From assembly GCA_045590195.1 (NCBI GenBank), contig JAZNQN010000044.1:19186-83185 (forward strand): a stretch of 64,000 nucleotides of DNA, given 5' to 3'. The notes below the pieces were generated by a model that was given only the letters and a program-made list of their open reading frames with translations, was not told the origin of the DNA and made no database searches. The DNA is from Clostridia bacterium. Its GTDB lineage: Bacteria > Bacillota > Clostridia > UMGS1883 > UMGS1540. The position numbers and the translations under genes were made by a program. Shown piece by piece: positions 46,501 to 62,399 of this stretch; position 1 is the stretch's first letter; every line of letters begins with the position of its first letter.

Positions 46501-46518
46501 TCTTTTTTAAAAAGCTAA

Positions 46519-46542: not shown

Positions 46543-46546
46543 AGCA

Positions 46547-47989
46547 TTATATTATACTGTTTGCATCACTCACGGCGTTATATATAGTTTTGTCTGCGGC
46601 CTTTTTTCCGAAGTTATCTATCATATTTTTATCGCGCGATGTGTGAGTAAGGCACCCTGCCCCACCAATACAACCACCAACACAAGCCATACCTTCTATA
46701 AAGTTTGCATCGAGCATCCCTTTGCTTTTCTTCAGAAGGTTTATTTTACACTCTTCAATTCCGTCGCACGAAATTGCATTAAGTGTAAAGTCGGTTACTC
46801 CTTTTTCTTTAAGCCCCTGTGCAACTGCATCGGCAAGGCCACCACAACGGGCAAAAATTCTTCCGAAATACGATGCGCCGTCAAGTTCGCTTTCTTCAAG
46901 AGAAGTAATATCTATATCGCGGCTGTCAAAAAGCGCCTGAAGCTCTTCAAAAGTTAAAACAGTATCAACATATTTTGAAACTTCTGCTTTCTGTGCCTCA
47001 GCTTTTTTTGCAGTACATGGACCGATAAAAATAACTTTTGCACTTTCATCGTGTTCTTTAATGTATTTTGCAATAGTTGCCATTGGCGAAAGATTATGTG
47101 AAATATTTTCAGAAAGGTTATCAAAATTTTGCTCAATATATTTTACAAACGCAGGGCAACAAGAGCTTGTTAAAAATCTTTTTTCTGCAAGCTCCTCTGC
47201 TTCGGATGCTGCAACCATATCAGCGCCAAGTGCAGCCTCAACAACATTGAAAAATCCGAGTTCTTTAATACCTGTCACAACCTGACCAAGCCTTGCATAG
47301 TTAAACTGACTTGAAATTGTAGGTGCAACAACGGCATAAATATTATACTTTGTATTATTTTCGCTACCTTTTAAAAGGTCGATTGCATCGAGAATAAATG
47401 ATTTATCTGTAATTGCGCCAAATGGGCACTGATATACACAGGCTCCACACGCAATACATTTATCATCAAGAATTTTTGCCGACATATCTACATTCGTTTC
47501 AATTGCATCCACCTTGCAAGCGCTTTGGCACGGACGACGGTAGTTTGCAATTGCGTTGAACGGACAAACTTTTGCGCAGGCACCACAGTTTTTACACTTG
47601 GTTTTATCAATGTGCGCTTTTGGGTTTTCATCAAAAGTTATGGCACCAAATTTGCAAACATCTTCACATCTGTGTGCCAGGCATCCGCGGCATGAATGAG
47701 TTACCTCGTATCCGCCCATAGGACATTCATCGCAGGCAATACTGATAACTTCAATTACATTTTTATTCCTTTTGTTACCACCCATCGCCATTTTAACTCT
47801 TTTTGCAAGAATGGCTCTTTCTTTATAAACGCAGCAACGCATAGTTGCCTCTTTCCCGGGCACAAGTATTTCCGGGATGTCGGATATATTTTCCATAAGA
47901 GTACCTGCCCAGTACAGACGGGCAACTTCTCTTAATACTTTATATTTCAGGTGTTGAACTTTAGTATCAAACTTTCTCATAATATTCAC
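46547..47989 (-). CDS. [FeFe]-hydrogenase-like protein (480 aa) with N-terminal ferredoxin-like clusters and variant H-cluster motifs
   Basis: L1 is TSSCCPAF, L2 is IGPCTAKKAE and L3 is EGMACVGGCIGGAGC. Two 4Fe-4S ferredoxin motifs lie upstream. Confidence 0.7.
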   Translation of the reverse strand: MNIMRKFDTKVQHLKYKVLREVARLYWAGTLMENISDIPEILVPGKEATMRCCVYKERAILAKRVKMAMGGNKRNKNVIEVISIACDECPMGGYEVTHSCRGCLAHRCEDVCKFGAITFDENPKAHIDKTKCKNCGACAKVCPFNAIANYRRPCQSACKVDAIETNVDMSAKILDDKCIACGACVYQCPFGAITDKSFILDAIDLLKGSENNTKYNIYAVVAPTISSQFNYARLGQVVTGIKELGFFNVVEAALGADMVAASEAEELAEKRFLTSSCCPAFVKYIEQNFDNLSENISHNLSPMATIAKYIKEHDESAKVIFIGPCTAKKAEAQKAEVSKYVDTVLTFEELQALFDSRDIDITSLEESELDGASYFGRIFARCGGLADAVAQGLKEKGVTDFTLNAISCDGIEECKINLLKKSKGMLDANFIEGMACVGGCIGGAGCLTHTSRDKNMIDNFGKKAADKTIYNAVSDANSII

Positions 47990-47990
47990 C

Positions 47991-49163
47991 TTAAAAATAA
48001 CTTACTTTAATTCTTTTACCCATTTTTTCAAGATGTTTGGATAACTCTTCTACCATATTCATTTTGATATTAAAATTTATGGGCAAATCAGGATTTTGAT
48101 GAGCAGGATTTACAGCTCTTCCAACATAAAAGTTAATATCGGTTGCTTCTTCAAACAAAAGTTGAGAAATTAACGACGCAGCATCTTTACCCATTTCCCA
48201 GTCATTATAAAGGCGGTTTTCATTAACAAAGTCCTCGGCATATTTAAGCACATGGCTCATTGTAATTACACCTTCAGTTACCAGGTCAACGCCATCAATT
48301 ATCGCTACTGGCGGAATTCCTTGTTTTTCAAACTTCAAAGTTGGTTTTACTTCCTTGCCAAGGTATTCGGCTGCAATTGAAGATGTTGTACCGCCGCAAA
48401 CAATGTGTTTACCCTCTTTTGCAAAGAAAAGTGCCATCATTTTTCTGCAATCATCTCTGTTTGATGGTGGACCAAAAACAAGGTTTATAGGCGCTCTTTT
48501 TCTTATTCTTACAACGCAGGCACTGGTATCATCGCCCGGTTCTCCGCCATAAAGTTTATTACATTCATCAGTTAAAATGGTTGCCAGGGTTTTTGCGTTA
48601 TATCCGGCACATTCAATAGTTTCCATAAACTCAGTTATCTGCTCAGTTTTCCAACCGAAATTATAAATATTTCCAATTCCTGCATGAGGACAACCATCGC
48701 TCATTGCAAGAAATAAATCGTTTTCGCAAAGCTTTATTCTCGAACGAAGCATCTTTTTATCGCCAATTGAAAATGTTTCCTGGTTATATTCAAAGTTCTT
48801 TCCGTCGCGAAGCAAAATTACAGGCGGATTATCATATTGAATAATTTCTGCAAACTCATTATTAACAATATGAATAATTGTAAATGTTGAATATGCCACT
48901 CCCCTTTGCGAACAAACGGGAAGTGTTGCTGCAATAGTTGAAACGCAGTCTTCAATTGACAGCCCTGCTGCCAGAAGAGTTGAAATTATTTTAGAAGTAA
49001 GTGTTGACAAAATGCCAGCTTTAACACCACTTCCAAGCCCATCGGCAAGAACAATTACAGATGAATTTTCGCCTGAGCTTACAACATCTATATGATCGCC
49101 GCAAAGCTCCTCACCGTGGTGGTTTAATGAGCGATATCCAATATCAGCACACAAATCATTCAT
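47991..49163 (-). CDS. SpoIIE/PP2C-type serine phosphatase with a C-terminal domain of about 170 aa of unknown function
   Basis: PP2C motifs CGDHIDV, VLADGLGSG and GDDTSACVV. Its start overlaps the hydS stop by 8 nt. Confidence 0.7.
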   Translation of the reverse strand: MNDLCADIGYRSLNHHGEELCGDHIDVVSSGENSSVIVLADGLGSGVKAGILSTLTSKIISTLLAAGLSIEDCVSTIAATLPVCSQRGVAYSTFTIIHIVNNEFAEIIQYDNPPVILLRDGKNFEYNQETFSIGDKKMLRSRIKLCENDLFLAMSDGCPHAGIGNIYNFGWKTEQITEFMETIECAGYNAKTLATILTDECNKLYGGEPGDDTSACVVRIRKRAPINLVFGPPSNRDDCRKMMALFFAKEGKHIVCGGTTSSIAAEYLGKEVKPTLKFEKQGIPPVAIIDGVDLVTEGVITMSHVLKYAEDFVNENRLYNDWEMGKDAASLISQLLFEEATDINFYVGRAVNPAHQNPDLPINFNIKMNMVEELSKHLEKMGKRIKVSYF

Positions 49164-50838
49164 CAGCTATTGTCTCCTTAAGTTTTGTAAGCGCAATTTT
49201 TGTTTCAGCAGCTGTTTCGCCAAGTAACGATGCAATTTCCTGAACAATGCGCATTTGCTTTTCAACAACTTTATCTGCTACTTCGATGGTTTCTGTCCCA
49301 ATTCTCTCTTTACGCTCTTTCTCTCTTTCCTCGGCAGTTACATCACGCAAAATGCAAATTATAATTCTATACTCTTTATCCGGAATAATTGTTTTTTCAA
49401 CATATTTGTCGTATTCTGCAAGATATTTTCTTCTGTTAGAAATCCTTCTTCCGCTTTCCATTGCATTTATAAACGGAGTAGGGTCTAAAATTCTTACAAC
49501 AGGCTCACCCATTACATCGGAAACAGATTTTACGTTCAAAATTTTTCTTGCGGAGTTGTTGATAAGCTGAACTTCAAGTTGTTCGTTTACAACAATAATT
49601 CCGTTAGGTGTGTTGTTAACTATTGTATCTGAGAAAACTTCAGCTTTATCTTTTAAAAACGGCAAACACATTGAAAGGTCGGCCTTTCCGTGGTATATTG
49701 CAATTGCTTTTTCACGGCAGGTATCATATCCACAGGAGCCACAGTTAAGCTCGTCTTCAGGACGAACTTTTCCCATTGTTTTCAGTACTTTGACTATTTC
49801 TTCATCGGCAGGTGGCTGAAGTCGTCTTTCAATAGGCTCAATGCCTTTTTGAAGTTCAGTAAAATCAGGCTGTGAAATTTCAAAGTCTTTTTCGCCTGCA
49901 TAATCAGAAACAGCTTTAAATTCACTCACAGGAGCTGAATTGAATTTTTCCATTATCGGACCGCAAATACAGCTTCCGCTGCAGGCCGACATTTCAATAA
50001 AGCATCCGTGTACTTTTCCGCTTTCAATATCACGAAGCGCTTCAATACAGTTATTAGTGCCATCAATGGCCATATATGTATATTCAGGAAGTCGCTCGTC
50101 CATTGTTTTTAATATACCTCCCGTTGTCGGGAAAAGCCTTGCACGGCTTTTTTCGGTAACATCTAGCTCTTTTTCAATCTCTATATTTTCTTCTTTGAAC
50201 CAGTTTGTAAGTTCATCGAAGGTTAAAACTGCGTCTACAATATCTCCGTAGTAATCACCCTCATCTTTTTTGGAAAGGCAGGGGCCGATAAATACTGTTT
50301 TCGCACCTGGATATTTCTTTTTAATTTCTATGGAATGAGCCTGCATAGGCGACATTGTGTTTGAAAGGTAAGGCAAAACAGAAGGAAAATACTTCTGAAC
50401 AAGCAAATTAACACTGTGGCAACAGGAAGAAATAAGAATATCAGGCTTTTCTTCACGAAGTTTGCGCTGGTATTCGTTTTTTACAATTGTTGCACCAATA
50501 GCAGTTTCTTCAGCATCGAAAAAGCCAAGTTTTAATAAAGCCTTTTTCATTGCCTCTATTCCGACACCATCATAATTTGCAATAAAAGACGGAGCAAGAG
50601 AAGCAACAACCTGTTCACCATTTGCAATCATTACTCTTACTTTTTCGCGCTGGTCTGTAATTTCTTTAGCATTTTGCGGACAAACAACAAAGCATTGACC
50701 GCATAAAATACACTCATTGCCAATAATATGTGCCTGATTACCTGAGAAACGAATGGCTTTTACGGGACAATGTCTAATACATTTATAACAGTTTTTACAG
50801 TTTGATTTTTTAAGTTTAAGCCATTCCACTATGCTCAC
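49156..50838 (-). CDS. hydS: Putative sensory [FeFe]-hydrogenase (HydS-like). It has N-terminal ferredoxin clusters, a variant H-cluster domain, an extra Cx2Cx4Cx16C motif and a C-terminal PAS domain.
   Basis: L1 is SSCCHSV, L2 is IGPCLSKKDE and L3 is EMSACSGSCICGP. CGSCGYDTC...C is present. The C-terminus has a PAS-like fold. A PP2C phosphatase is adjacent. Confidence 0.7.
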   Translation of the reverse strand: MSIVEWLKLKKSNCKNCYKCIRHCPVKAIRFSGNQAHIIGNECILCGQCFVVCPQNAKEITDQREKVRVMIANGEQVVASLAPSFIANYDGVGIEAMKKALLKLGFFDAEETAIGATIVKNEYQRKLREEKPDILISSCCHSVNLLVQKYFPSVLPYLSNTMSPMQAHSIEIKKKYPGAKTVFIGPCLSKKDEGDYYGDIVDAVLTFDELTNWFKEENIEIEKELDVTEKSRARLFPTTGGILKTMDERLPEYTYMAIDGTNNCIEALRDIESGKVHGCFIEMSACSGSCICGPIMEKFNSAPVSEFKAVSDYAGEKDFEISQPDFTELQKGIEPIERRLQPPADEEIVKVLKTMGKVRPEDELNCGSCGYDTCREKAIAIYHGKADLSMCLPFLKDKAEVFSDTIVNNTPNGIIVVNEQLEVQLINNSARKILNVKSVSDVMGEPVVRILDPTPFINAMESGRRISNRRKYLAEYDKYVEKTIIPDKEYRIIICILRDVTAEEREKERKERIGTETIEVADKVVEKQMRIVQEIASLLGETAAETKIALTKLKETIADE

Positions 50839-51095
50839 TCCCCTATATTTAATACTTTAAGTATATGTTCCTTAAAAAAGTCATCGAACTTATGTATTGT
50901 AAGTCCTACAAAAACTTCATCGTTTATCTGAACGGTTACGCCTTCGCGATTGCATTTTCCAATGCAAAAGCTTCCGGCAACAGAAACTTTGTCGCCAATA
51001 TTATAATCACTTACTGCTTTTTCAAAAGCATTTGCTATTTCATATGAACCTTTAATATGACAGGAACTGCCAATACAAACTAATACTTTAAGCAA
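50835..51095 (-). CDS. Thioredoxin-like [2Fe-2S] ferredoxin of 86 aa
   Basis: CIGSSC...C(x3)C Cys spacing, as in the NuoE C-domain or Trx-like ferredoxins. Confidence 0.55.
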   Translation of the reverse strand: MLKVLVCIGSSCHIKGSYEIANAFEKAVSDYNIGDKVSVAGSFCIGKCNREGVTVQINDEVFVGLTIHKFDDFFKEHILKVLNIGE

Positions 51096-51107
51096 AAATA
51101 AATCATT

Positions 51108-51152
51108 CCTTTTTGATTTTTTAAAAGGCCGCAGTGCGGTTGCACCGCGGCC
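51108..51152 (-). terminator. Possible weak terminator or attenuator between the two small ferredoxin genes
   Basis: GGCCGCAGTGCGGTTGCACCGCGGCC hairpin. The T run on the minus strand is only 4 nt. Confidence 0.35.
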
Positions 51153-51160
51153 ATATGTTA

Positions 51161-51409
51161 TTATTTTACAAGAGGAAGTATATTATCTTTGAAAAACGCT
51201 CTTGCCTCTTTTTCGGTAATTCGGAATGTTTTGTCATCTACTTTTACAGAAACGCCAACATTTGTACAATTTTTCATACAAAATGACGCCGCAAGTTCAA
51301 TTTTATCATGAAGATTATTATCTTCAATCATATGCTGAAATGATGACACAACATTATGTGCTCCGTTTAAATGACACGCGCTTCCAATGCATACACTAAT
51401 TTTTATCAT
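51161..51409 (-). CDS. Thioredoxin-like [2Fe-2S] ferredoxin of 82 aa
   Basis: CIGSAC...CMKNC. Paralogous to the gene at 50835-51095. Confidence 0.55.
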   Translation of the reverse strand: MIKISVCIGSACHLNGAHNVVSSFQHMIEDNNLHDKIELAASFCMKNCTNVGVSVKVDDKTFRITEKEARAFFKDNILPLVK

Positions 51410-51411
51410 TA

Positions 51412-53109
51412 TTATTCCTCCGATTTTTTCGCATAGTTCACATGTAAAAGTTTATGAACTTTACCTTTAATAATATTGTTATAAAGTGACGAAACAATTG
51501 GGTTTTCTTCTGAACGACGTATGCTTAAGAGTCTGTCAGATTTATAAAGTCCGCTCTTTCTGGCAGCAATCTCGTGCTGCATTGCAAATGGCTGACCGCC
51601 ACCATTTATACATCCGCCAGGGCAAGCCATAACTTCAATAAAGTCAATCTGTTCGCCGTCTTTTACGCGCTGAAGAACTTTTTCAGCATTTGCAAGACCG
51701 CTTACAACTACAATATGAAGTTCTCTTTCTCCATACATAAGTTTAAATTCTTTAATGCCATCAAGGCCACGCTGACCGCAATCTGCAATAGAAAGAAGTC
51801 CGCTTCTTGATTTATTTGCAGCAACACGGCGAAGTACAGCTTCTGTAACACCACCTGTTACACCAAATATTACACCTGCACCTGAAATAGTACCAAATGG
51901 CATATCGACAGCTTCAGGCTCTAAGGTATCAAACATAATACCTGCTTCTTTAACCATTGAAACAAGTTCCTGAGTTGTAATAACTGCATCAACATTAGGC
52001 TGACCGTCCATTTTGAACTCATCTCTTGCAGCTTCAAACTTTTTAGCTGTACAAGGCATTACTGCAACATGGAACATTTTTCTTGAAGCTTCTTTTGCCT
52101 GGTCTTTCAAAATTGAAGCCATCATCTGCATTGGGCTGCGGCAAGTTGATACATTAGGAAGAAATTCAGGGAATTTCTTTTCGCAGAACTGAATCCAGCC
52201 AGGGCAGCATGAAGTAATAAGTGGAAGATTTTCGCCTTTTTCAAGTTTAGTAAGAAATTCTTCACTTTCTTCCAAAACAGTTAAATCTGCTCCGAGAGAA
52301 GTATCATAAATTTCATCAAATCCCATACGATGAAGAGCGGCAACAATTTTACCCATTACATCTTCCCCGTCGCGAACACCAAGTTCTTTACCAAGTGCAA
52401 CTCTTACCGCAGGAGCAACCTGAACAGTTGTTTTAACTTCAGGGTCGCTTATTGCTTTCCAAACGGGAGCAATATTATTTTTAACAACAAGAGCACCTGT
52501 TGGACATACTGCAACACACTGACCACAGCCAACACATGGGCTTTCTGAAAGTGGTTTATTAAACGCAGTGCTGATTGTCATATTAGAGCCACGGTATGCA
52601 AAGTCGATAGCGCCAACATTCTGAACCTCGTTACACATTCTCACACAGTCGCCGCAAAGAATACATTTGCCTGTATCTCTTGTAATGCATACGGAAGACG
52701 TATCTTCATCTTTTGTTGAAACTGCAGTATTAGGGAAACGAACGCCTTCAATATTAAAGCGCATTGCCAAATCCTGCAATTTACATTTTGCGTTGTTCTC
52801 ACAGGTTGTACAGTCGCGGCAATGGTTAGCAAGAAGAAGTTCGAGAATATTTTTTCTGTATCTTCTAAGGCGCTCTGTATTTGTTTTTATGTTCATACCT
52901 GCACGAGGAGGTGTTGAACAAGCGGCATCAAGTCCGCCTCTTTCGTTTTCTACCATACACATACGGCATGCACCGTAAACCGAAAGCTCGGAATGATAGC
53001 AGAATGTAGGCATTTTTACGCCTGTTTTATTTATAAGTTCAAGAAGATTTTTCTCTCCGTTAATTTCAACGGGGATACCGTCGATTGTCAAATACTGTTT
53101 CTCAGTCAT
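51412..53109 (-). CDS. hydA: [FeFe]-hydrogenase catalytic subunit HydA, set 1 of the HydABC type
   Basis: It has an N-terminal plant-type [2Fe-2S], ferredoxin clusters, and canonical H-cluster motifs TSCCPGW, MPCTAKKFE and EVMACPGGCINGGG. Confidence 0.85.
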   Translation of the reverse strand: MTEKQYLTIDGIPVEINGEKNLLELINKTGVKMPTFCYHSELSVYGACRMCMVENERGGLDAACSTPPRAGMNIKTNTERLRRYRKNILELLLANHCRDCTTCENNAKCKLQDLAMRFNIEGVRFPNTAVSTKDEDTSSVCITRDTGKCILCGDCVRMCNEVQNVGAIDFAYRGSNMTISTAFNKPLSESPCVGCGQCVAVCPTGALVVKNNIAPVWKAISDPEVKTTVQVAPAVRVALGKELGVRDGEDVMGKIVAALHRMGFDEIYDTSLGADLTVLEESEEFLTKLEKGENLPLITSCCPGWIQFCEKKFPEFLPNVSTCRSPMQMMASILKDQAKEASRKMFHVAVMPCTAKKFEAARDEFKMDGQPNVDAVITTQELVSMVKEAGIMFDTLEPEAVDMPFGTISGAGVIFGVTGGVTEAVLRRVAANKSRSGLLSIADCGQRGLDGIKEFKLMYGERELHIVVVSGLANAEKVLQRVKDGEQIDFIEVMACPGGCINGGGQPFAMQHEIAARKSGLYKSDRLLSIRRSEENPIVSSLYNNIIKGKVHKLLHVNYAKKSEE

Positions 53110-53113
53110 TTTC

Positions 53114-54988
53114 TCAAACCTCCTTTATAGCCTTGAATGCACAAGCATCAATACAGCTACCGCAACGAATACATTTTGAAAGGTTAATTGTAAATGGTTC
53201 CTTAATTTTTCCTTCGATAGCTTCAACAGGACACTGACGGGCACATTTTGAGCAACCTTTACAAAGCTCAGGGTCAATAACAATTGTTTTAAGTTTCTGA
53301 CATTCACCCGCTGGACAACGCTTGTCGTAAATATGAGCTTCATATTCATCACGGAAGTTTTTAATTGTACTTACTACCGGAGAAGGAGCACTTTTGCCAA
53401 GTCCGCAAAGAGCTGTAGCCGAAATTGTATCAGCAAGCTCGAGAAGGAGTTCAATATCTCCATCCTGACCTTCGCCTGCGACAATTCTTTCAAGAATCTG
53501 AAGCATTCTCTTTGTACCTTCACGGCAAGGAACGCATTTACCACAGCTTTCGTTCTGTGTAAAGTTCATAAAGAATCTTGCAACCTCTACCATACAGGTA
53601 TTTGAGTCCATAACAACAAGTCCGCCGGAGCCTATCATAGCTCCAACCTTTTTAAGTGTATCAAAGTCAAGAGGAAGGTCTAAATGTTCTTTTGTAAGAC
53701 AAGCACCTGAAGGGCCGCCTATCTGTACGGCTTTAAATTCGCCGTCGCCTTTCATACCGCCACCGATATCAAAAATAATCTCGCGGAGAGTTGTTCCCAT
53801 AGGAACTTCGATAAGGCCTGTATTTGCAATGTTACCTGTAAGAGCAAAAGCTTTTGTGCCTGCACTTCCCTCTGTTCCGATACCGAGATACCAGTCTGCG
53901 CCACGGTTTATAATTTCAGCAACGTTTGCATATGTTTCAACATTATTAAGTACTGTTGGTTTATCAAAAAGACCATGTTCAACAGTTCTTGGAGGTTTAA
54001 CTCTCGGGAAACCACGTTTACCTTCGATTGAAGCAGTAAGCGCACTACCTTCGCCACAAACAAACGCACCTGCACCACGGCTGATGTGCATTTTAAACGA
54101 AAAGCCTGTTCCGAGAATATTTTCGCCAAGAAGGCCTAGTTCTTCTGCCTGAGTTATTGCATTTTTAAGTCTGTCAACAGCGAGAGGATATTCAGCACGA
54201 ACATATATGTAACCTTCACATGCGCCACAGGCAACACCTGCAATCATCATACCCTCAAGCATTCTGTGAGGGTCACCTTCCATAATACTTCTGTCCATAA
54301 ATGCACCGGGGTCACCCTCGTCACCATTACAAACAACATATTTAATAGGCTCTTTCTGGCGTTTAACCTGTTCCCATTTTCTTCCGGCAGGAAATCCGCC
54401 GCCCCCACGTCCGCGAAGGTTTGATTTACTGATTTCAGATACAATGTCATCAGCAGTCATATCAAAAAGTGCTTTTTCAAAAGCGGAATAACCACCAATG
54501 GCAATATATTCACGAATTGATTCGGCATCAATTTTACCGCAGTGTTCCAAAACGATACGGGTTTGCTGTTTATAAAAAGGAATTTCATCCTGTTTTTTGT
54601 ATGAAACGCCATCTTTTTTGCAGGCAAGGCGGTCAATGGGTTCTCCTTTAAGAACTGTTTTTTCAATAATTTCTTCACAGTCTTCAACTTTTACTTTTGT
54701 GTAAAGCCAACCCTGTGGGTCGATTCTGAGAAGTGGGCCCATTTCACAAAAACCATGGCAACCGCTCTTTTTAAGGCCTATGCTTTCATCGTGGGGATCA
54801 ACTTCAAGCTCCACTGCAACTTTAATGCCTCTTTCATCACAAAGTTCTTTAAGTCTGTCATAAATTTTAAGTGAGCCACCGGCAACGCAACCTGTTCCGG
54901 CACAAACAATGATTTTTTCGGTTTGTAGTTCATAAGACTTTTTCACTTCTTCACGAAGCTTCATAAAATCTTCTCTGTTTTTAAGCAT
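53114..54988 (-). CDS. hydB: NuoF-like NAD(P)H-binding flavoprotein subunit HydB, set 1
   Basis: It has an N-terminal Trx-like [2Fe-2S], FMN/NADH-binding Gly-rich motifs (GRGGGGFP), a NuoF-type [4Fe-4S] and a C-terminal 2x[4Fe-4S]. Confidence 0.85.
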   Translation of the reverse strand: MLKNREDFMKLREEVKKSYELQTEKIIVCAGTGCVAGGSLKIYDRLKELCDERGIKVAVELEVDPHDESIGLKKSGCHGFCEMGPLLRIDPQGWLYTKVKVEDCEEIIEKTVLKGEPIDRLACKKDGVSYKKQDEIPFYKQQTRIVLEHCGKIDAESIREYIAIGGYSAFEKALFDMTADDIVSEISKSNLRGRGGGGFPAGRKWEQVKRQKEPIKYVVCNGDEGDPGAFMDRSIMEGDPHRMLEGMMIAGVACGACEGYIYVRAEYPLAVDRLKNAITQAEELGLLGENILGTGFSFKMHISRGAGAFVCGEGSALTASIEGKRGFPRVKPPRTVEHGLFDKPTVLNNVETYANVAEIINRGADWYLGIGTEGSAGTKAFALTGNIANTGLIEVPMGTTLREIIFDIGGGMKGDGEFKAVQIGGPSGACLTKEHLDLPLDFDTLKKVGAMIGSGGLVVMDSNTCMVEVARFFMNFTQNESCGKCVPCREGTKRMLQILERIVAGEGQDGDIELLLELADTISATALCGLGKSAPSPVVSTIKNFRDEYEAHIYDKRCPAGECQKLKTIVIDPELCKGCSKCARQCPVEAIEGKIKEPFTINLSKCIRCGSCIDACAFKAIKEV

Positions 54989-55466
54989 TGTTTATCTCCT
55001 CTCTGAGTTTTTTCAAAAGCTCTGATGCTTTATCCGGTGTCATTGCAGAATATACAACATCGTTTACTGTAAGTACCGGAGCAAGACCACAAGCGCCGAG
55101 ACATGATACTGTTTCAAGTGTAAAGTTTAAGTCGTCGGTAGTTTTTTTGCTTTCGCTAAGTCCAAGTTCACTGCGAAGACGCTCCAAAATCGGAATGGAA
55201 CGGCGAACATGACAAGCTGTTCCGTCGCATATTTTTATTACATATTTTCCCTTTGGTTCAAGAGAAAAGTTTTCGTAAAATGTTGCTACGCTGAAAATCC
55301 TAACTTCAGGAATGTTAAGCTGTTTTGCAAGATGTGGAAAAATATCTTTTGGCAAGTAATGATATTCTTCCTGAATTTCCTGCAAAATTGCGATAATTGC
55401 CTGTGGATTTTTGTCGTATTTATCGACTATTTTATCTACGATTGCAAAATCAAACTGTTCACTCAT
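54981..55466 (-). CDS. hydC: NuoE-like [2Fe-2S] subunit HydC, set 1
   Basis: Trx-like fold with CDGTAC...C...CLGAC. Confidence 0.85.
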   Translation of the reverse strand: MSEQFDFAIVDKIVDKYDKNPQAIIAILQEIQEEYHYLPKDIFPHLAKQLNIPEVRIFSVATFYENFSLEPKGKYVIKICDGTACHVRRSIPILERLRSELGLSESKKTTDDLNFTLETVSCLGACGLAPVLTVNDVVYSAMTPDKASELLKKLREEINNA

Positions 55467-55488
55467 AGTTTTACTCCTTTGTTTTTAA

Positions 55489-56898
55489 TTATTTATTCTT
55501 AAGGTATTCATCGATTGCCTTGGCAGCAGTTTTACCTGCGCCCATAGCAGATATAACCGTTGCAGCACCTGTTACTGCATCGCCGCCTGCATAAACTGCA
55601 TCGCGTGATGTAAGGCCATCTTCATTTACAATAATTCCGCCTCTGTTATTAACTTCAAGGCCCTTTGTAGTATCTTTTATAAGCGGGTTAGGCGAAGTAC
55701 CAATAGACATTACAACTGCATCAACCTCTAACTCATATTCTGAACCCGGAATTTCTACAGGACGTCTTCTTCCTTTTTCATCAGGTTCGCCAAGTTCCAT
55801 TTTCATAAGGCGAATACCTGTTACAAAACCGTTTTTAGGATCTCTTGGATCCTCAGGATTGTTATAACCCAGAATTTCAACCGGGTTTCTGAGAAGCTGA
55901 AAATCGATTCCCTCTTCTTCAGCATGTTCAACTTCTTCCCTTCTTGCAGGAAGTTCTTCCATTGAACGACGGTAAATAATATAAACCTTCTCAGCTCCAA
56001 GTCTTAAAGCAGTTCTTGCAGCATCCATAGCAACATTACCGCCGCCTACAACTGCAACACGGCCACCTTTCATAATAGGTGTGCTGCCATCTTCACGATA
56101 AGCTTTCATGAGATTGCTTCTTGTTAAGAATTCGTTTGCAGAATAAACGCCTTTAAGAGATTCGCCGGGAATTCCCATGAAATTTGGAAGGCCTGCACCG
56201 CTGCCTACAAAAACAGCTTCATAGCCCATATCAAAAAGCTCGTCGATTGTAAGGGTTTTACCGATTACAACATTAGGCTCAACATTTACGCCAAGTTCTT
56301 TTAAAGTTTCAACTTCTTTAGCAACTATTGCCTTTGGAAGACGAAATTCAGGAATACCATAAACAAGTACACCGCCTGCTGTGTGAAGTGCTTCATAAAC
56401 TGTTACGTCGTAACCTTTTTTAGCAAGGTCACCTGCACAGGTAAGGCCTGAAGGGCCGCTACCAACAACGGCAACTTTGTGGCCGTTAGACAATGGTTTT
56501 TCAGCCTTTTCCTTGGCGTTTTCATTATGCCAGTCAGCAACAAAACGCTCAAGTCGGCCAATGCCTACAGGCTCAAACTTAATTCCAAGAGTACATTTAC
56601 TCTCACACTGTGTTTCCTGTGGGCAAACTCTTCCGCAAACCGCAGGAAGTGAAGATGATTTTGAAATAGACTGATATGCACCTTCAAAATCGCCATTTTT
56701 AATATGAGTAATAAAATCAGGAATATCAATATTTACAGGACAGCCTGCAACGCAAGGCTGGTTTTTACAATTTAAGCATCTTTCAGCTTCTCCTACAGCC
56801 ATTTCCTGAGTATAACCAAGAGCAACTTCATTGAAGTTATGGCCCCTCACATCAGCAGGCTGTGTTGGCATTTCATGCTTTTTAGGATTTATTGCCAT
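55489..56898 (-). CDS. nfnB: NfnB / GltD-like subunit (SudA-like; NADH-dependent reduced ferredoxin:NADP oxidoreductase large subunit)
   Basis: It has N-terminal 2x[4Fe-4S] (CLNCKNQPC...CP), two dinucleotide folds (VAVVGSGPSG and VAVVGGGNVAMD) and is about 470 aa. It is 22 nt upstream of hydC. Confidence 0.75.
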   Translation of the reverse strand: MAINPKKHEMPTQPADVRGHNFNEVALGYTQEMAVGEAERCLNCKNQPCVAGCPVNIDIPDFITHIKNGDFEGAYQSISKSSSLPAVCGRVCPQETQCESKCTLGIKFEPVGIGRLERFVADWHNENAKEKAEKPLSNGHKVAVVGSGPSGLTCAGDLAKKGYDVTVYEALHTAGGVLVYGIPEFRLPKAIVAKEVETLKELGVNVEPNVVIGKTLTIDELFDMGYEAVFVGSGAGLPNFMGIPGESLKGVYSANEFLTRSNLMKAYREDGSTPIMKGGRVAVVGGGNVAMDAARTALRLGAEKVYIIYRRSMEELPARREEVEHAEEEGIDFQLLRNPVEILGYNNPEDPRDPKNGFVTGIRLMKMELGEPDEKGRRRPVEIPGSEYELEVDAVVMSIGTSPNPLIKDTTKGLEVNNRGGIIVNEDGLTSRDAVYAGGDAVTGAATVISAMGAGKTAAKAIDEYLKNK

Positions 56899-56923
56899 TT
56901 TAAATTCCTCCTTCTAAATCAGT

Positions 56924-57772
56924 TCAGGCATTTTTGAAAAGATTGCAAGCTTCTTCATATGCGTGACGCTCAAAATCTGCATACATTCTGCCTCTTGACA
57001 TTGCCTCGTCAAAATCGATTTCGTAGGCATTAAATTCAGGCCCGTCAACACATGCAAACTTTGTAACCTTTTTGCCATCCTGGTTCAAAGTAAGTCGGCA
57101 ACCGCCGCACATACCAGTTCCGTCGATCATAATAGGATTCATTGAAGCTGTTACAGGAACACCAAAAGGTTTGGCAGTTAGAGTAACAAACTTCATCATA
57201 ATAAGCGGACCAATTGTGATGATAATGTCAAATTTTTCTCCGCCTTCAAGCATTTCTTTAAGCGGAACAGTTACGTTACCGTGACGACCATAAGAACCGT
57301 CATCAGTCATTAAAATAAGGTTGTCCGAGCATTCTCTGAACTCATCTTCCAAAATTACAAGATTTTTATCTCTGAAACCGATAATGCTTGTAACTTCAGC
57401 CCCAAGGCGATGAAATTCCTGCGCAACAGGCATAGCAATAGCACAGCCAACGCCTCCGCCTACGATACAAACTTTTTTAATACCTTCAGTATGAGTTGCT
57501 CTTCCAAGAGGACCAACAAAATCTTCAATGAACTCACCTTCGTTTTTCTGACCGAGTTTTGCAGTTGTTCCTCCAACTATTTGAAAAATTATTTTAACTG
57601 TGCCATCTTCCTTGTTGCAACCTGCAACTGTAAGCGGTATTCTTTCGCCTTCGCTGTCGACACGTAAAATAATAAACTGACCTGGTTTTGCCTTTGCTGC
57701 AACTAACGGAGCTTCAATTTCCATCTGGGTTACAGTTGGGTTTAACACTCTTTTACGCACAATTTTGTACAT
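56924..57772 (-). CDS. nfnA: NfnA / SudB-like small subunit (FNR/PyrK-like FAD protein with a [2Fe-2S])
   Basis: About 280 aa with an FNR-like fold and a C-terminal Cys cluster (CGGCRLT...C). Confidence 0.75.
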   Translation of the reverse strand: MYKIVRKRVLNPTVTQMEIEAPLVAAKAKPGQFIILRVDSEGERIPLTVAGCNKEDGTVKIIFQIVGGTTAKLGQKNEGEFIEDFVGPLGRATHTEGIKKVCIVGGGVGCAIAMPVAQEFHRLGAEVTSIIGFRDKNLVILEDEFRECSDNLILMTDDGSYGRHGNVTVPLKEMLEGGEKFDIIITIGPLIMMKFVTLTAKPFGVPVTASMNPIMIDGTGMCGGCRLTLNQDGKKVTKFACVDGPEFNAYEIDFDEAMSRGRMYADFERHAYEEACNLFKNA

Positions 57773-57974
57773 AAAAATTCACCTCTCTATATTTTAAATA
57801 ATTGTTATATTACATACATAACTTTACATAATATATAATAACACAATTACACTTTTTTGCATATTATAAAATTTGCATATCCGTTATATACTTATAGGCA
57901 TATGGTTATTTCGTTTTTACATAACAACAGCGCGATACATTTATTATGTACCGCGCTGCTTAAAATTATTTAAA

Positions 57975-59711
57975 TCAGTATTTCTTTCTTTCTACATAGT
58001 GAGTATGTAAAAGGTCGTGAGCTTTGTGTGAACCGGGTTCGCCAAAGTACTCTTTATAGAGTTTGTCAACATCAGGATTCTTATGACTCTGTCTTACAGT
58101 AGATGCTTTGTCTTCAGCATAAAGGGCTTTTGCCCTTTCAGCCTTAACATCCATATCCATACGAAGCTTAGCCGGAACAATCGGCTGACCGCCACCTGTT
58201 ACGCAACCACCGGGACAAGCCATAATTTCGATAAAGTGATAATCTGCTTTGCCCTCTTTAATACTGTCGAGAAGTGCACGTGCATTTCCAAGGCCATGAG
58301 CAATAGCAACTTTAACTTCTTTACCCCCGAGAGTAAGAGCAGCTTCTTTAATGCCCTCAACACCTCTTACTGCCTCAAAATCAAGGCTTGCAGGCTCTTT
58401 ACCGTCAAGAATTTCGGCAACTGTACGAAGTGCTGCTTCCATAACACCACCTGTTGCACCAAAGATAACACCTGCGCCTGTATCCATACCAAATGGGTCA
58501 TCGAATTTTGCATCTTCAAGAGAAGCAAAATCTATACCCTGTTCTTTAATCATTTTAGCAAGTTCTCTTGTTGTAAGAACGATATCAACATCTTGAAATT
58601 CGTTGCCAAGTTCTTCTCTGCCAGCTTCGAACTTTTTAGCTACGCAAGGCATAACGGAAACTACAACCATTTTTTCAGGGTCGATATTATTCTTTTCTGC
58701 ATAGTAAGATTTAAGAACAGCACCAAACATTTCGTGAGGAGATTTACAGCTTGAAAGGTTTGGAATAAATTCAGGATAGTAATGTTCACAGAACTTAACC
58801 CAACCAGGGCTGCAAGAAGTTATAAGTGGCAACTTACCACCATCTTTAATTCTGTTTATAAGCTCTGTTCCTTCTTCCATAATTGTAAGGTCGGCAGCTG
58901 TATTTGTATCAAAAACTTTGTCAAATCCGAGCATCTTGAGTGCATTTGCCATTTTACCTGTAACAGGTGTGCCAATTTCAAATCCGAATTCTTCGCCAAG
59001 TGCCGCTCTTACAGCAGGAGCTGTCTGAACGATAACATATTTTTCAGGATCGGCAATTGCTTCCCAAGTCTGTGCAATACTGTCTTTTTCATAAAGTGCA
59101 CCAACAGGACAAGCAGCAATACACTGACCACAGTTAACACAGGCAACATCGCCAAGTGATTGTTCAAACGCACAAGCAATTGAAGTGTTGAAACCACGGT
59201 TAACAGCGTCAATAACAGATACAGTTTGAATATTTTTACAAGCACTTACACAGCGACGGCAGAGAATACATTTGTTGTTATCACGAACAATTGATGCTGA
59301 TGAATCATCAATTTCCTGGACATTTCTCTCGCCTTCAAAAGCAATATCACGAACACCGAGTTCTTCAGCCAAAGTCTGAAGTTCACAATTTCTGTTTCTT
59401 TCGCAAGTAAGACATCTTTTGTCATGAGCGGAAAGAATAAGCTCAAGTGTGATTTTTCTTGCTTTTCTGACTTTTTCGCTGTTTGTTACAACCTCAAGGC
59501 CTTCTGAAACAGGATAAACACAAGCCGCCTGAAGTGTTCTTGCAGTTGAAACTTCAACTACGCACATACGGCATGAACCTGTTTTGCTTACATCCTTTAA
59601 ATAACAAAGAGTAGGGATGTGAATATTTGCACTGCGTGCAGCTTCAAGAACGGTATAATTTGCAGGAACGCTAAGGCTCTTGCCGTTAATTTTAATATTT
59701 ACATTTTCCAT
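57975..59711 (-). CDS. hydA: [FeFe]-hydrogenase catalytic subunit HydA, set 2. Its L1 motif is a variant.
   Basis: The domain order is the same as set 1. L1 reads TSCSPGW, confirmed at the DNA level as tct tgc agc cct ggt tgg. L2 is MPCVAKKFE and L3 is EIMACPGGCVTGGG. Confidence 0.85.
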   Translation of the reverse strand: MENVNIKINGKSLSVPANYTVLEAARSANIHIPTLCYLKDVSKTGSCRMCVVEVSTARTLQAACVYPVSEGLEVVTNSEKVRKARKITLELILSAHDKRCLTCERNRNCELQTLAEELGVRDIAFEGERNVQEIDDSSASIVRDNNKCILCRRCVSACKNIQTVSVIDAVNRGFNTSIACAFEQSLGDVACVNCGQCIAACPVGALYEKDSIAQTWEAIADPEKYVIVQTAPAVRAALGEEFGFEIGTPVTGKMANALKMLGFDKVFDTNTAADLTIMEEGTELINRIKDGGKLPLITSCSPGWVKFCEHYYPEFIPNLSSCKSPHEMFGAVLKSYYAEKNNIDPEKMVVVSVMPCVAKKFEAGREELGNEFQDVDIVLTTRELAKMIKEQGIDFASLEDAKFDDPFGMDTGAGVIFGATGGVMEAALRTVAEILDGKEPASLDFEAVRGVEGIKEAALTLGGKEVKVAIAHGLGNARALLDSIKEGKADYHFIEIMACPGGCVTGGGQPIVPAKLRMDMDVKAERAKALYAEDKASTVRQSHKNPDVDKLYKEYFGEPGSHKAHDLLHTHYVERKKY

Positions 59712-59730
59712 AATTATCTGCTCCCCTCTC

Positions 59731-61611
59731 TTAGTGTTTTTCTATTGCGCCAAATTTACAGCTATCCATACACACGCCACATTTGATACATTTGTCTGTA
59801 TCAATTGTAAATGGCGATTTGATTTCGCCTGAAATTGCGCCAACAGGACATTTTCTTGCACAGAGTGAACACCCTTTACATTTATCTGCAACAATCTCGT
59901 ATTTAAGAAGTTTTTTACATACGCCTGCAGGACATTTTTTATCACGAACGTGAGCAATGTATTCATCCCTGAAATAACGAAGTGTGCTGAGTACAGGGTT
60001 AGGAGCTGTCTGGCCAAGGCCACAAAGTGAAGAAGTTTTAATAGCTTCACAAAGCTCTTCAAGCTTATCAATATCTTCCATTGTTCCCTTACCTTCTGTA
60101 ATTTTTGTAAGAATTTCAAGAAGGCGTTTTGTACCGATACGGCATGGCGAACATTTACCACAGCTCTCATCAACTGTAAATTCAAGGAAGAATTTAGCAA
60201 TATCAACCATACAGTTATCTTCATCCATTACAATAAGACCACCGCTGCCCATCATAGAGCCAATGCTCATAAGCGAATCGTAATCAATAGCTGTATCAAT
60301 CAAAGATGCAGGAATACATCCTCCCGAAGGGCCACCTGTCTGAGCGGCTTTAAATTTCTTACCGTTTGGAATTCCGCCGCCAATTTCTTCGATGATTTCA
60401 CGAAGAGTTGTTCCCATAGGAACTTCAACAAGACCTGTGTTATTGATTTTACCACCAAGAGCAAATACTTTTGTACCTGCGCTCTTTTCGGTACCAATAC
60501 CTTTAAACCAAGCGGCACCATTATTTATAATCATAGGAATATTTGCATAAGTTTCAACATTATTCAGAAGAGTTGGTTTCTGCCACAAACCTTTAACAGC
60601 CGGGAACGGAGGACGTGGACGTGGTTCGCCACGGTGACCTTCAATAGAAGTCATAAGAGCTGTTTCCTCGCCGCAAACAAATGCACCGGCACCAAGACGA
60701 AGCTCAAGGTTAAATTCGAAATCAGTTCCAAAAATATTTTTACCAAGAATTCCATATTCCCTTGCCTGTTCAATAGCAATATTAAGGCGGTCAACCGCGA
60801 TAGGATATTCGGCACGAATATAGATATAACCCTGCTTAGCGCCTACTGCATAAGCTGCAATTGACATAGCCTCTATAATAGTGTGAGGATCACCCTCAAG
60901 AACACTACGGTCCATAAACGCACCAGGGTCGCCTTCATCGGCATTACATGCAACATATTTTTCTTCGCCGGGAGCATTTGCAGTAAACAACCATTTCATA
61001 CCTGTTGAGAAGCCGGCACCGCCACGGCCACGAAGACTTGAGTTTTTAACTTCATCAATTACTTCAGCAGGTGTCATACTTGTAAGAACTTTTTCAAGGG
61101 CTTTATAACCATCGAAAGCTATGTATTCATCAATATTTTCAGGATTAACAACACCACAGTTACGAAGAGCAAGACGCTGTTGTTTTCTGTAGAAATTAAC
61201 ATCGTTAAGACCTTTGATATTTTCACCATCAATTGTTTCCTGATAAACAAGGCGTTTTACAACGTTTCCACCCTTAAGGTGTTCACTGACAATTTCCTTA
61301 ACATCTTCAATTTTTACGCAGCTGTAAAAACATCCTTCAGGATATACTATCATAATCGGGCCAAGTGCACAAAGGCCAAAGCAACCGGTCTGAACAACCT
61401 GAATTTCGTCTGCAATACCAAAATCTGCAAGCTGTTTTTTAAGTTCTGTAATAATTTTGGGCGAACCCGATGAAGTACAACCTGTACCGCCACATACGAG
61501 CACATGGTGGCGAATTTTATCGGGAACCACATTTTTATCTTTACGAAGTGAAATTCTTTTAAAAGTTTCACTACGTATAGCATTTATTTCATTTAAGCTT
61601 TTCATAATCAA
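59731..61611 (-). CDS. hydB: NuoF-like flavoprotein subunit HydB, set 2
   Basis: Paralogue of the gene at 53114-54988 with the same motif set. Identity is about 55-60% by eye. Confidence 0.85.
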   Translation of the reverse strand: MIMKSLNEINAIRSETFKRISLRKDKNVVPDKIRHHVLVCGGTGCTSSGSPKIITELKKQLADFGIADEIQVVQTGCFGLCALGPIMIVYPEGCFYSCVKIEDVKEIVSEHLKGGNVVKRLVYQETIDGENIKGLNDVNFYRKQQRLALRNCGVVNPENIDEYIAFDGYKALEKVLTSMTPAEVIDEVKNSSLRGRGGAGFSTGMKWLFTANAPGEEKYVACNADEGDPGAFMDRSVLEGDPHTIIEAMSIAAYAVGAKQGYIYIRAEYPIAVDRLNIAIEQAREYGILGKNIFGTDFEFNLELRLGAGAFVCGEETALMTSIEGHRGEPRPRPPFPAVKGLWQKPTLLNNVETYANIPMIINNGAAWFKGIGTEKSAGTKVFALGGKINNTGLVEVPMGTTLREIIEEIGGGIPNGKKFKAAQTGGPSGGCIPASLIDTAIDYDSLMSIGSMMGSGGLIVMDEDNCMVDIAKFFLEFTVDESCGKCSPCRIGTKRLLEILTKITEGKGTMEDIDKLEELCEAIKTSSLCGLGQTAPNPVLSTLRYFRDEYIAHVRDKKCPAGVCKKLLKYEIVADKCKGCSLCARKCPVGAISGEIKSPFTIDTDKCIKCGVCMDSCKFGAIEKH

Positions 61612-61632
61612 ACCTCCAAGTTCAAATCTGGT

Positions 61633-62121
61633 TTATTCCATATACTTTTTCAAGATGCCTTCAACTTCGTCAACGGTAAGTTTTCCGTAAACGTCTTCGC
61701 CAACTGTCATAACAGGAGCAAGACCGCAGGCACCGATACATCTTGTAGCATCGATAGAGAAAAGACCGTCGGGAGTACATTCTCCAACTTCTATTCCCAA
61801 AATTTCCTTAACCTTCTCCAGAATAAGATTTGAACCTTTTACATAACATGCAGTACCAAGACAAACACCTATCTGATATTTGCCCTTTGGATTAAGTGAA
61901 AACTGAGCATAAAAAGTTACAACTCCATAAATTTCAGCCAAAGGAATATTAAGTCCTTCTGCAATCATTGTCTGCACTTCGATTGGCAGATATCCATAAA
62001 TTTTCTGCGCTTCGTGCAAAACAGGAATAACTGCGCCGGGCTGATCTTTGTGCATTTCAATAACTTCGTTAAGCTTTGCAGCCTGTTCACTTGTTCCTGC
62101 AAATGGTATTGTTTGTGCCAT
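61633..62121 (-). CDS. hydC: NuoE-like [2Fe-2S] subunit HydC, set 2
   Basis: CLGTAC...C...CIGAC, Trx-like. Confidence 0.85.
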   Translation of the reverse strand: MAQTIPFAGTSEQAAKLNEVIEMHKDQPGAVIPVLHEAQKIYGYLPIEVQTMIAEGLNIPLAEIYGVVTFYAQFSLNPKGKYQIGVCLGTACYVKGSNLILEKVKEILGIEVGECTPDGLFSIDATRCIGACGLAPVMTVGEDVYGKLTVDEVEGILKKYME

Positions 62122-62399
62122 TAAAAACTCCTCCTATGTTTTATATTAATGCATAATAACACATCATTGTTAATATTATATCAATTATATCACTTTTACA
62201 CAAGTACCTAAATTATTTTTGGTTACATTGTACAAAACTTACCGCGTATTTTCCGTTTTTACCTATGCTTTTTTTGCATAATGACTATATAAAAAATGTT
62301 GGATAACAAAATTACACAAATATAGCTAAAAAAACTTTGACTTTTTTCCTATAATATGTTATCATTATTTAATAATGCATTTTACGAGGAGTGAATCAA

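Follow-up and report, generated by a model that had tools for sequence, protein, structure and literature searches.

Two HydABC hydrogenases with a predicted NAD/NADP split in a putative three-module hydrogen-metabolism island of a gut-type Clostridia bacterium

In many Firmicutes of gut and rumen, H2 is produced mainly by trimeric [FeFe]-hydrogenases, enzymes that annotation routinely labels NADH-dependent. Here we describe a run of 13 open reading frames (ORFs), all head to tail on the minus strand at positions 46547-62121 of a 64,000-nucleotide stretch (the window) of contig JAZNQN010000044.1 from an uncultured gut-type Clostridia bacterium. The run encodes two HydABC sets, a predicted NfnAB transhydrogenase, two small thioredoxin (Trx)-like [2Fe-2S] proteins (fdx1, fdx2), a hydrogenase-like sensor (HydS), a PP2C phosphatase and a monomeric hydrogenase (HydX). 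All components are members of known families, and the region is probably a hydrogen-metabolism island of three separately movable modules, in which set 1 is predicted to use NADP(H) and set 2 NAD(H).

Each part of the island has a described counterpart. Purified HydABC of the thermophilic acetogen Thermoanaerobacter kivui is strictly NADP-specific (20.8 U/mg with NADP+, <0.01 U/mg with NAD+; PMC8578170), and Arg340 of its HydB, together with Phe205 and a Gly-rich loop, stabilises the bound NADP+/FMN (PMC10021017). In the active, NAD-specific enzyme of Acetobacterium woodii, Ser301 replaces one Cys ligand of the H-cluster [4Fe-4S] and the infrared signature is unaffected (PMC10021017). For transhydrogenases of the NfnAB type the position of nfnA directly upstream of nfnB is the gene order rule, and in Clostridium autoethanogenum a fused nfn has already been noted to share a cluster with what is predicted to be a multimeric [FeFe]-hydrogenase (PMC6405883). 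The hfsABCD genes of Thermoanaerobacterium saccharolyticum/thermosaccharolyticum encode, among others, the PAS-containing sensor HfsB, the Ser phosphatase HfsC and the ferredoxin-linked hydrogenase HfsD, and mutations in hfsB are thought to deregulate hfsD. For Ruminococcus albus, a 90-fold drop of hydA2 transcripts is reported when a partner organism removes H2.

Two HydABC sets and their nucleotide-binding motifs

The order of the 13 ORFs within 46547-62121 and their labels are those of a first-pass annotation made from the sequence alone, with which the Pfam and NCBIfam domain content agrees throughout. The two HydABC sets comprise:

hydC2, 61633-62121, minus strand: NuoE-like [2Fe-2S] subunit of set 2 (PF01257, 176 bits; 44% identical to HydC1)
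hydB2, 59731-61611, minus strand: NuoF-like FMN/NAD subunit of set 2 (Pfam), with N-terminal Trx-like 2Fe-2S and C-terminal 2x[4Fe-4S]
hydA2, 57975-59711, minus strand: catalytic [FeFe]-hydrogenase subunit of set 2, L1 motif TSCSPGW (Ser301)
hydC1, 54981-55466, minus strand: NuoE-like [2Fe-2S] subunit of set 1 (PF01257, 172 bits)
hydB1, 53114-54988, minus strand: NuoF-like FMN subunit of set 1, with CGEGSAL (311-317, Gly314) and PPRT (332-335, Arg334)
hydA1, 51412-53109, minus strand: set 1 catalytic [FeFe]-hydrogenase subunit; its motifs TSCCPGW, MPCTAKK and MACPGGC are canonical

Both sets present the HydABC group A3 / FeFe-Bfu layout, with gene order hydC-B-A and a NuoE-like HydC. In both HydB proteins the NuoF-like FMN domain is preceded by a Trx-like 2Fe-2S domain at the N-terminus and followed by a ferredoxin-like 2x[4Fe-4S] domain at the C-terminus, and both align over their full length to structures of bifurcating HydB. 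Both HydA proteins carry the H-cluster motifs L1-L3 and an N-terminal F-domain (2Fe-2S, His-ligated 4Fe-4S, 2x4Fe-4S), matching the Pfam families Fer2_4, NADH-G_4Fe-4S_3, Fer4, Fe_hyd_lg_C and Fe_hyd_SSU. The two sets can thus be classified as electron-bifurcating-type HydABC, with coupled reduction of ferredoxin (Fd) and NAD(P)+ by H2 as the predicted reaction.

Protein identity between set 1 and set 2 (BLASTP) is 43.6% for HydC, 51.2% for HydB and 43.7% for HydA, below the 55-60% estimated by eye in the first-pass annotation; the conclusion drawn there, that the sets are old paralogues, is borne out and indeed strengthened by these lower values. A recent duplication of the sets is ruled out, as their DNA identity is just 64-67%, and this over parts of the sets only.

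The two sets find their best solved relatives in different enzymes. HydB1 and HydA1 match T. kivui HydB (8A6T_B, 810 bits) and HydA1 (8A6T_A, 552 bits) best in the PDB, and HydB2 and HydA2 match A. woodii HydB (7Q4V_B, 1006 bits) and HydA1 (7Q4V_A, 800 bits, with identical TSCSPGW). HydA2 passes the NCBIfam model NF040763 for the NADH-dependent [FeFe] hydrogenase of group A6 (932.7 bits against a cut-off of 765), whereas HydA1 passes TIGR02512 and stays under the NF040763 cut-off (681.1 bits). In HMMER alignments of HydB1 to four solved HydB chains, one short region separates the aligned enzymes by cofactor:

T. kivui HydB, NADP: CGESTAL...GMPRVRPPRT
HydB1, predicted NADP: CGEGSAL...GFPRVKPPRT
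A. woodii HydB, NAD: CGEETAL...PRPRPPFP
A. mobile HydB, NAD: CGEETAL...PRPRPPFP
Thermotoga maritima HydB, NAD: CGEETAL...PRPKPPFP
HydB2, predicted NAD: CGEETAL...PRPRPPFP

Counted along the alignment, T. kivui Arg340 is the Arg of PPRT and corresponds to Arg334 of HydB1 and Phe336 of HydB2; Phe also stands at this position in A. woodii, T. maritima and A. mobile. The motifs CGEETAL and PPFP lie at residues 313-319 and 334-337 of HydB2. The second Glu of CGEETAL, retained in HydB2 and the NAD-type enzymes, is replaced by Gly314 in HydB1 and by Ser in T. kivui. In NuoF-type sites specific for NAD, this Glu presumably binds the adenosine ribose. We take it to be Glu183 of E. coli NuoF, the removal of which is said, by Morina et al. 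in 2011, to let complex I use NADPH; this we treat as a lead only. The Stn structure paper contains nothing on NAD/NADP discrimination.

The signature recurs beyond the window. A scan for HydB1 relatives, with one genome per GTDB species, yielded 80 loci of 74-91% identity, nearly all of them in Clostridia that are uncultured and come from gut, rumen or digesters (Oscillospiraceae, Acutalibacteraceae, Christensenellales), with Yeguia hominis NSJ-40 (L016), Acetivibrio mesophilus N2K1 (L038) and Clostridium punense as isolates; all 80 possess CGEGSAL...PR[VT]KPPRT. A control scan of metagenome contigs for HydB2 relatives yielded 80 loci of 67-79% identity, 79 of which have CGEETAL...PP[FY]P. 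In view of the T. kivui and A. woodii affinities and the HydB motif residues, use of NADP(H) by set 1 and of NAD(H) by set 2 is a supported prediction, and the comparison of the HydB loops gives the NADH/NADPH difference guessed at in the first-pass annotation a basis at the residue level.

Set 1 shares with T. kivui HydABC (8A6T) the subunit set, the domain layout, the canonical TSCCP and the Arg of PPRT, and both lack the second Glu of CGEETAL. Set 1 differs in the motif itself (CGEGSAL with Gly versus CGESTAL with Ser), in an extra small Trx-like 2Fe-2S gene 3' of hydA, and in gene neighbourhood, since T. kivui hydCBA (TKV_c19580-600) lies apart from nfnAB (c22270-80); the host is, moreover, a gut-type bacterium and not a thermophilic acetogen.

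Set 2 resembles the NAD-specific HydABC(D) of A. woodii (7Q4V/8A5E), the best solved relative of HydA2 and HydB2, down to the common CGEETAL...PPFP, but no hydD-like gene was identified at the window locus. The L1 motif of HydA2 is TSCSPGW where [FeFe]-hydrogenases usually have TSCCPxW. An inactive HydA2 was considered on this ground and dismissed, given that this Ser is also found in A. woodii, where the enzyme is active, and that TSCSP occurs in each of the 65 metagenomic HydA2-type relatives recovered (among L084-L163). The Ser-for-Cys H-cluster ligand can hence be regarded as a clade-wide trait and not as a peculiarity of A. woodii. The hydC2-hydB2 gap of the window measures 21 nucleotides (nt), unlike in most HydB2-type relatives, where about 950 nt of extra coding sequence are located between hydC and hydB. 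A distant HydS-like gene (25-30% identity) is often found upstream in the HydB2-type relatives.

NfnAB, its linkage to hydCBA and the module borders

The segment between the two HydABC sets, and the small gene following set 1, contain:

hydA2-nfnA gap, 57773-57974, minus strand: 202 nt
hairpin 3' of hydA2, 57926-57960, minus strand: terminator-like, 15-bp stem then UUGUUAUGU (RNA fold)
AT-rich region, 57773-57925, minus strand: putative promoter region of the nfnA operon, with TATAAT at 57863-57868, as read from the sequence
nfnA, 56924-57772, minus strand: small NfnAB subunit, FAD/NAD-binding, [2Fe-2S] with Asp and three Cys ligands
nfnB, 55489-56898, minus strand: large NfnAB subunit, 2x[4Fe-4S], FAD, NADPH site, YRR at 309-311
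nfnB-hydC1 spacer, 55467-55488, minus strand: 22 nt, unstructured, with ribosome-binding site AAAGGAG
fdx1, 51161-51409, minus strand: 82-aa Trx-like [2Fe-2S] protein (PF01257, 21.7 bits, slightly under cut-off; four Cys kept)
hairpin between fdx1 and fdx2, 51123-51152, minus strand: intrinsic-terminator-like, GC-rich 11-bp stem then UUUU

Against T. maritima NfnB (4YLF_B), the window NfnB reaches 536 bits and aligns at every cluster Cys and at YRR; against TIGR01316 it reaches 573 bits (cut-off 472). NfnA scores 270 bits against the small subunit of Pyrococcus furiosus NfnI (5JCA_S), 254 bits against T. maritima NfnA (4YLF_A) and 373 bits against NF004862 (cut-off 220), with its D-x3-C-x2-C...C [2Fe-2S] site aligned. 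Both proteins match P. furiosus NfnII/Xfn (5VJ7) more weakly (536 and 489 bits for Nfn proper versus 453). The pair is predicted to be an NfnAB transhydrogenase, a function that relatives like P. furiosus NfnII/Xfn do not share. The order nfnA-nfnB follows the rule (PMC6405883), with a gap of 25 nt. An exact look-up of the NfnB protein found no record.

The likeness to the nfnAB of T. maritima (4YLF) and to P. furiosus NfnI (5JCA) extends to gene order, Fe-S ligands including the Asp-Cys3 set, FAD sites and YRR. Unlike these, the window nfnAB is located directly upstream of a bifurcating hydrogenase operon, a position that T. maritima nfnAB presumably does not share.

Linkage of nfnAB was counted in the 63 HydB1-type loci (of 80) with at least 2.6 kb upstream of hydC. 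Directly upstream of hydC (gap <400 nt), nfnA-nfnB is found in 17 of these loci; in 11 it lies on the same strand within 10 kb without being adjacent, and in two on the opposite strand, which makes 30/63 within 10 kb in total. No HydB2-type locus (0/80) has nfnAB, the sole NfnB-like match (42%, L096) lying well upstream of hydC2. Likewise, hydS with PP2C is linked to 22/80 HydB1-type and 1/80 HydB2-type loci. In this sample nfnAB associates specifically with the NADP-signature clade, which lends independent genomic support to a shared NADP(H) pool. The arrangement of nfnAB with hydCBA, called unusual in the first-pass annotation, is therefore not unusual but recurrent among species-level relatives of HydB1, present in about a quarter to a half of them depending on whether adjacency or a 10-kb neighbourhood is counted.

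The literature consulted on an nfnAB-hydCBA operon with NADP-type HydB yielded only the C. autoethanogenum neighbourhood, and no paper describing the clade-specific link of nfnAB to NADP-signature HydABC was found. In C. autoethanogenum nfn and a predicted multimeric [FeFe]-hydrogenase likewise share one cluster, but nfn is a single fused gene downstream of rex. A conserved adjacency of set 2 and nfnAB was rejected, as it is seen in no close relative. HydB1-type operons of 74-80% identity also occur in metagenome-assembled genomes outside the Firmicutes, namely L028 and L029 (Spirochaetales / Sphaerochaetaceae) and L082 (Cloacibacillus), which may reflect errors in binning or else a horizontal transfer of HydABC with the NADP signature.

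The borders of the nfnAB-containing block are marked by hairpins, the stability of which was assessed as RNA fold energy against 200 shuffles. The gap of about 200 nt with a hairpin recorded in the first-pass annotation is reproduced at 202 nt, and its hairpin reaches -25.1 kcal/mol (z -4.8), with 0/200 shuffles as stable. The fdx1-fdx2 hairpin, absent from that annotation, reaches -27.9 kcal/mol (z -5.6), again with 0/200 shuffles as stable, so that the genes from nfnA onwards probably do not make up a single continuous unit. Altogether three hairpins, after hydA2, fdx1 and hydX, are either far above the stability of the shuffled controls or followed by U-runs. Many relatives, e.g. L019, L020 and L036, possess long-stem hairpins with T-runs 3' of the fdx1 homologue; in these three, fdx2-hydS follow the hairpin as in the window.

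From the start of nfnA to the end of fdx1 (57773 to ~51300), the window is collinear at the nucleotide level with L004, L005, L008 and L059, while the flanks differ; in L059 the hydS-PP2C block is found upstream of nfnA, and hydX downstream of fdx1. A small Trx-like 2Fe-2S gene directly 3' of hydA1 is present in 39/66 relatives, fdx1 being the conserved final gene of the set 1 unit, and fdx2 travels with hydS-PP2C in rearranged relatives. Three movable units are accordingly predicted by comparison of loci: hydC2B2A2, nfnAB-hydC1B1A1-fdx1 and fdx2-hydS-PP2C-hydX. Within the second, co-transcription of nfnAB with hydC1B1A1, as proposed in the first-pass annotation, is plausible, the distance of 22 nt given there being exact and the spacer unstructured, with AAAGGAG; in the closest relatives (L004-L008, L059, L062) the nfnB-hydC spacers are likewise unstructured and 2-33 nt long.

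A single transcription unit from hydC2 to hydX, with the hairpins acting as mRNA-stabilising or processing elements, would agree with the placement of all 13 genes on one strand, with the short or interrupted U-tracts after the hydA2 and fdx1 hairpins, and with the failure of a generic terminator scan to flag these hairpins. We consider it very unlikely, however, given that the hairpins are far more stable than shuffles and stand exactly at the module borders that rearrange in relatives, that a 130-nt AT-rich region follows the first of them, and that set 2 adjoins nfnAB in no close relative.

Several points weigh against the proposed island with its cofactor split. The NADP signature is anchored on one characterised NADP-specific enzyme, that of T. 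kivui. Binding of the 2'-phosphate of NADP by Arg340 is our own suggestion, as PMC10021017 names the residue as a nucleotide contact without assigning it to the 2'-phosphate. The score margin of HydB1 is modest (T. kivui 810 bits versus 765 for the NAD-dependent A. mobile and 739 for A. woodii), and about half of the HydB1-type loci (33/63) are without nfnAB nearby. The generic consensus promoter/terminator scan was not above shuffles, the three hairpins having been missed because of its T-run rule. Several more distant relatives have nfnB-hydC spacers of 114-158 nt with strong hairpins, and that of L039 is a canonical terminator; since distant relatives have such spacers, tight nfnB-hydC coupling would be a trait of the sub-lineage of the window and not of the whole clade.

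In a rival explanation, both HydABC sets are ordinary NADH/ferredoxin bifurcating isoenzymes differing in regulation or kinetics, and the proximity of nfnAB reflects shared redox regulation only. Most characterised HydABC enzymes use NAD(H), the closest NCBIfam model for HydA is named 'NADH-dependent', the preference of HydB1 for T. kivui over NAD-type HydBs is small, and a single NADP-specific enzyme validates the signature. This explanation is nonetheless unlikely, considering that HydA1 lies below and HydA2 above the cut-off for NADH-dependent A6 enzymes, that HydB1 has Arg334 at the T. kivui Arg340 contact where all aligned NAD-types have Phe and has lost the second Glu, that the signature is invariant in the 80 loci, and that nfnAB linkage is confined to the HydB1 type (30/63 versus 0/80).

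Alternatively, NfnAB and HydA1B1C1, with or without Fdx1, could form one physical super-complex in the manner of Nfn-Bfu or Hyt/FDH, which would transfer NADPH or electrons internally and act as a composite NADH/Fd hydrogenase of non-canonical stoichiometry. The 22-nt spacer would permit translational coupling in this lineage, the small 2Fe-2S protein within the conserved 6.5-kb block is a possible connector, and the fusion of NfnB-like domains into Bfu enzymes offers a precedent (PMC9304861). Yet NfnAB and HydABC are each complete homologues of stand-alone enzymes, no fusion protein occurs in the 80 loci, and the loci without nearby nfnAB or with terminators between nfnB and hydC argue against such an assembly, which we hold to be highly improbable.

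The fdx2-hydS-PP2C-hydX module

The third of the predicted modules of the island contains:

fdx2, 50835-51095, minus strand: 86-aa Trx-like [2Fe-2S] protein, TTG start (PF01257, 28.7 bits, cut-off 24.8)
hydS, 49156-50838, minus strand: putative H2-sensing group-C [FeFe]-hydrogenase homologue with PAS domain
PP2C, 47991-49163, minus strand: SpoIIE/PP2C-type Ser phosphatase (residues ~18-225; PF07228, 52.7 bits), overlapping hydS by 8 nt
hydX, 46547-47989, minus strand: monomeric group-B [FeFe]-hydrogenase (HfsD / R. albus HydA2 type), with SSCCPA, GPCTAKK and MACVGGC intact
hairpin 3' of hydX, 46509-46545, minus strand: followed by UUUUU, likely terminator

Of the two small Trx-like ferredoxins of the first-pass annotation, fdx2 passes Pfam, and fdx1 falls slightly below the cut-off but retains four Cys and is 38% identical to fdx2. 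The H-domain motifs of HydS are degenerate (SSCCHS, GPCLSKK, SACSGSC), the latter two replacing MPC and MAC. HydS matches Fe_hyd_lg_C, a C-terminal Cys4 FeS motif (PF04060) and PAS in Pfam, and passes no catalytic NCBIfam model. Judged by domains, motifs and the adjacent phosphatase, it is assigned to the group C sensory type with a PP2C partner, H2 signalling being putative. HydX, conversely, scores 555.2 bits (cut-off 450) against TIGR04105, 'monomeric [FeFe] hydrogenase', over positions 1-461 of 462, and is therefore classified as a catalytic group-B enzyme. The 'sensory-hydrogenase regulatory module' of the first-pass annotation thus stands for hydS, with its PAS domain, and PP2C, and does not hold as a purely regulatory unit, hydX being of catalytic type.

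In gene order the module resembles hfsABCD of Thermoanaerobacterium and HydS-HydA2 of R. albus 7. A small first gene is followed by a PAS-containing sensor that resembles a hydrogenase, then by a Ser phosphatase and last by a monomeric hydrogenase linked to ferredoxin, the likeness being one of gene order and domains. The module differs from hfsABCD in that HfsA is described as unlike known proteins, whereas fdx2 encodes a recognisable Trx-like 2Fe-2S protein, and in that it adjoins an NADP-type HydABC operon, around which it shuffles in relatives.

No Pfam family or solved structure matches the C-terminal ~165 residues of PP2C (~226-390). Relatives conserve this region along with the gene, and it may be the part that communicates with HydS or with the substrate. 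The PDB matches of PP2C are weak and to SpoIIE-type phosphatases, those of HydS are to catalytic hydrogenases, and little else is informative. In a near-identical ENA contig (L001, positions 3004-4642; HydA1 100% identical), hydS is present as two genes of 465 and 91 aa, as opposed to one 560-aa ORF in the window; the split is probably a frameshift error in a 2.6x-coverage assembly.

Proposed electron flow and the surroundings of the cluster

Read from gene and domain content, signatures, hairpins and comparative linkage, a scheme of cofactors, transcription units, flux direction and regulatory targets can be proposed. Module 1 (hydC2-hydB2-hydA2), with its own promoter region and terminator-like hairpin, would be an NAD(H)/ferredoxin bifurcating or confurcating hydrogenase disposing of NADH and reduced ferredoxin, 1:1, as H2. 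Module 2 (nfnA-nfnB-hydC1-hydB1-hydA1-fdx1), a conserved 6.5-kb block, is most likely a single operon in this genome. Its Nfn step (NADH + Fd(red) + 2 NADP+ -> 2 NADPH) would lift electrons of NADH to the level of NADPH, which the hydrogenase would then oxidise along with reduced ferredoxin, forming H2; the net reaction is inferred to be NADH + 3 Fd(red,2e-) -> 4 H2. The reverse, H2 uptake making NADPH, is equally possible. In module 3 the non-catalytic PAS H2-sensor homologue HydS, predicted to be translationally coupled to the PP2C phosphatase, would presumably adapt the ferredoxin-only HydX, in its expression or its activity, to the amount of H2, and possibly module 2 as well; HydS-PP2C could in this way choose among the three hydrogenases.

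With physiological potentials of -280 mV for NADH, -380 mV for NADPH, -500 mV for Fd and -414 mV for H2 (PMC9304861, Table 1), the computed mean donor potential is ~-390 mV for NADH+Fd and ~-440 mV for NADPH+Fd. The equilibrium H2 pressure, by our Nernst estimate, is roughly 0.2 bar for the former and several bar for the latter. Owing to the ~100 mV more negative NADPH couple, module 2 should evolve H2 at a much higher H2 pressure than module 1, at the price of more ferredoxin spent. The 1:3 ratio of NADH to Fd does not match glycolysis alone, which adds to the points against the scheme and makes its physiological rationale speculative.

A stricter version, in which NfnAB, the NADP-signature HydABC and Fdx1 form one obligate unit, possibly a super-complex, is quite unlikely. 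It would constitute a 'high-pressure' route (NADH + 3 Fd(red) -> 4 H2) switched on by HydS-PP2C once H2 builds up, and at low H2 the NAD-type HydABC would serve instead. In that case a large part of the gut hydrogenases labelled 'group A3 NADH-dependent' would be mis-assigned and would actually be NADPH enzymes.

For the proposed island as such, current concepts are extended and none is overturned. Modestly new is the presence of the signature of the only structurally characterised NADP-specific enzyme throughout a large clade of trimeric hydrogenases from gut Clostridia that are labelled 'NADH-dependent', comprising the window and 80 species-level relatives; in this sample only the NADP-signature clade is nfnAB-linked, with HydS-PP2C linkage skewed in the same direction. 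Should the signature predict specificity, NADPH-linked H2 formation, with its NADH:Fd ratios and H2 thresholds, would have to enter the redox models of gut fermenters. The two HydABC types side by side offer a convenient natural pair for the study of NAD/NADP specificity in Bfu-type enzymes.

Neither hydEFG nor a rex gene was found in the window. A search for the Rex operator (TTGTKAA-N4-TTMACAA) gave 7 matches in the window versus 4 expected, which is not significant, and none upstream of nfnA. Two matches lie next to the cluster:

Rex-box-like palindrome, 46483-46500, plus strand: upstream of mdh, just outside the cluster, TTGATAATTTTTTAACAA, 1 mismatch
Rex-box-like palindrome, 62167-62184, plus strand: upstream of hydC2, weak, 2 mismatches

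Directly downstream of the cluster, 33988-46406 (minus strand) contains, in order, mdh, fumC, genes for an HdrB-like CCG protein and an HdrA-like flavoprotein, two polyferredoxin-like genes, a gene for an FAD/NAD protein that is PyrK/NfnA-like and has a 2Fe-2S site, genes for FrdB-like and FrdA-like proteins, and one for a transporter of the Asp-Al_Ex family; the enolase gene comes next. The run from mdh to the transporter is likely a soluble, Hdr-linked, possibly bifurcating fumarate reductase branch with its exporter. The remaining window carries housekeeping genes, a sporulation gene, an integrase and a gene at 2444-4204 (minus strand) for a 586-aa protein with S-layer homology (SLH) and a full serpin domain, making it a bacterial serpin anchored at the cell surface. 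This SLH-serpin gene is adjoined by those for an HtrA-like protease and for a two-component system.

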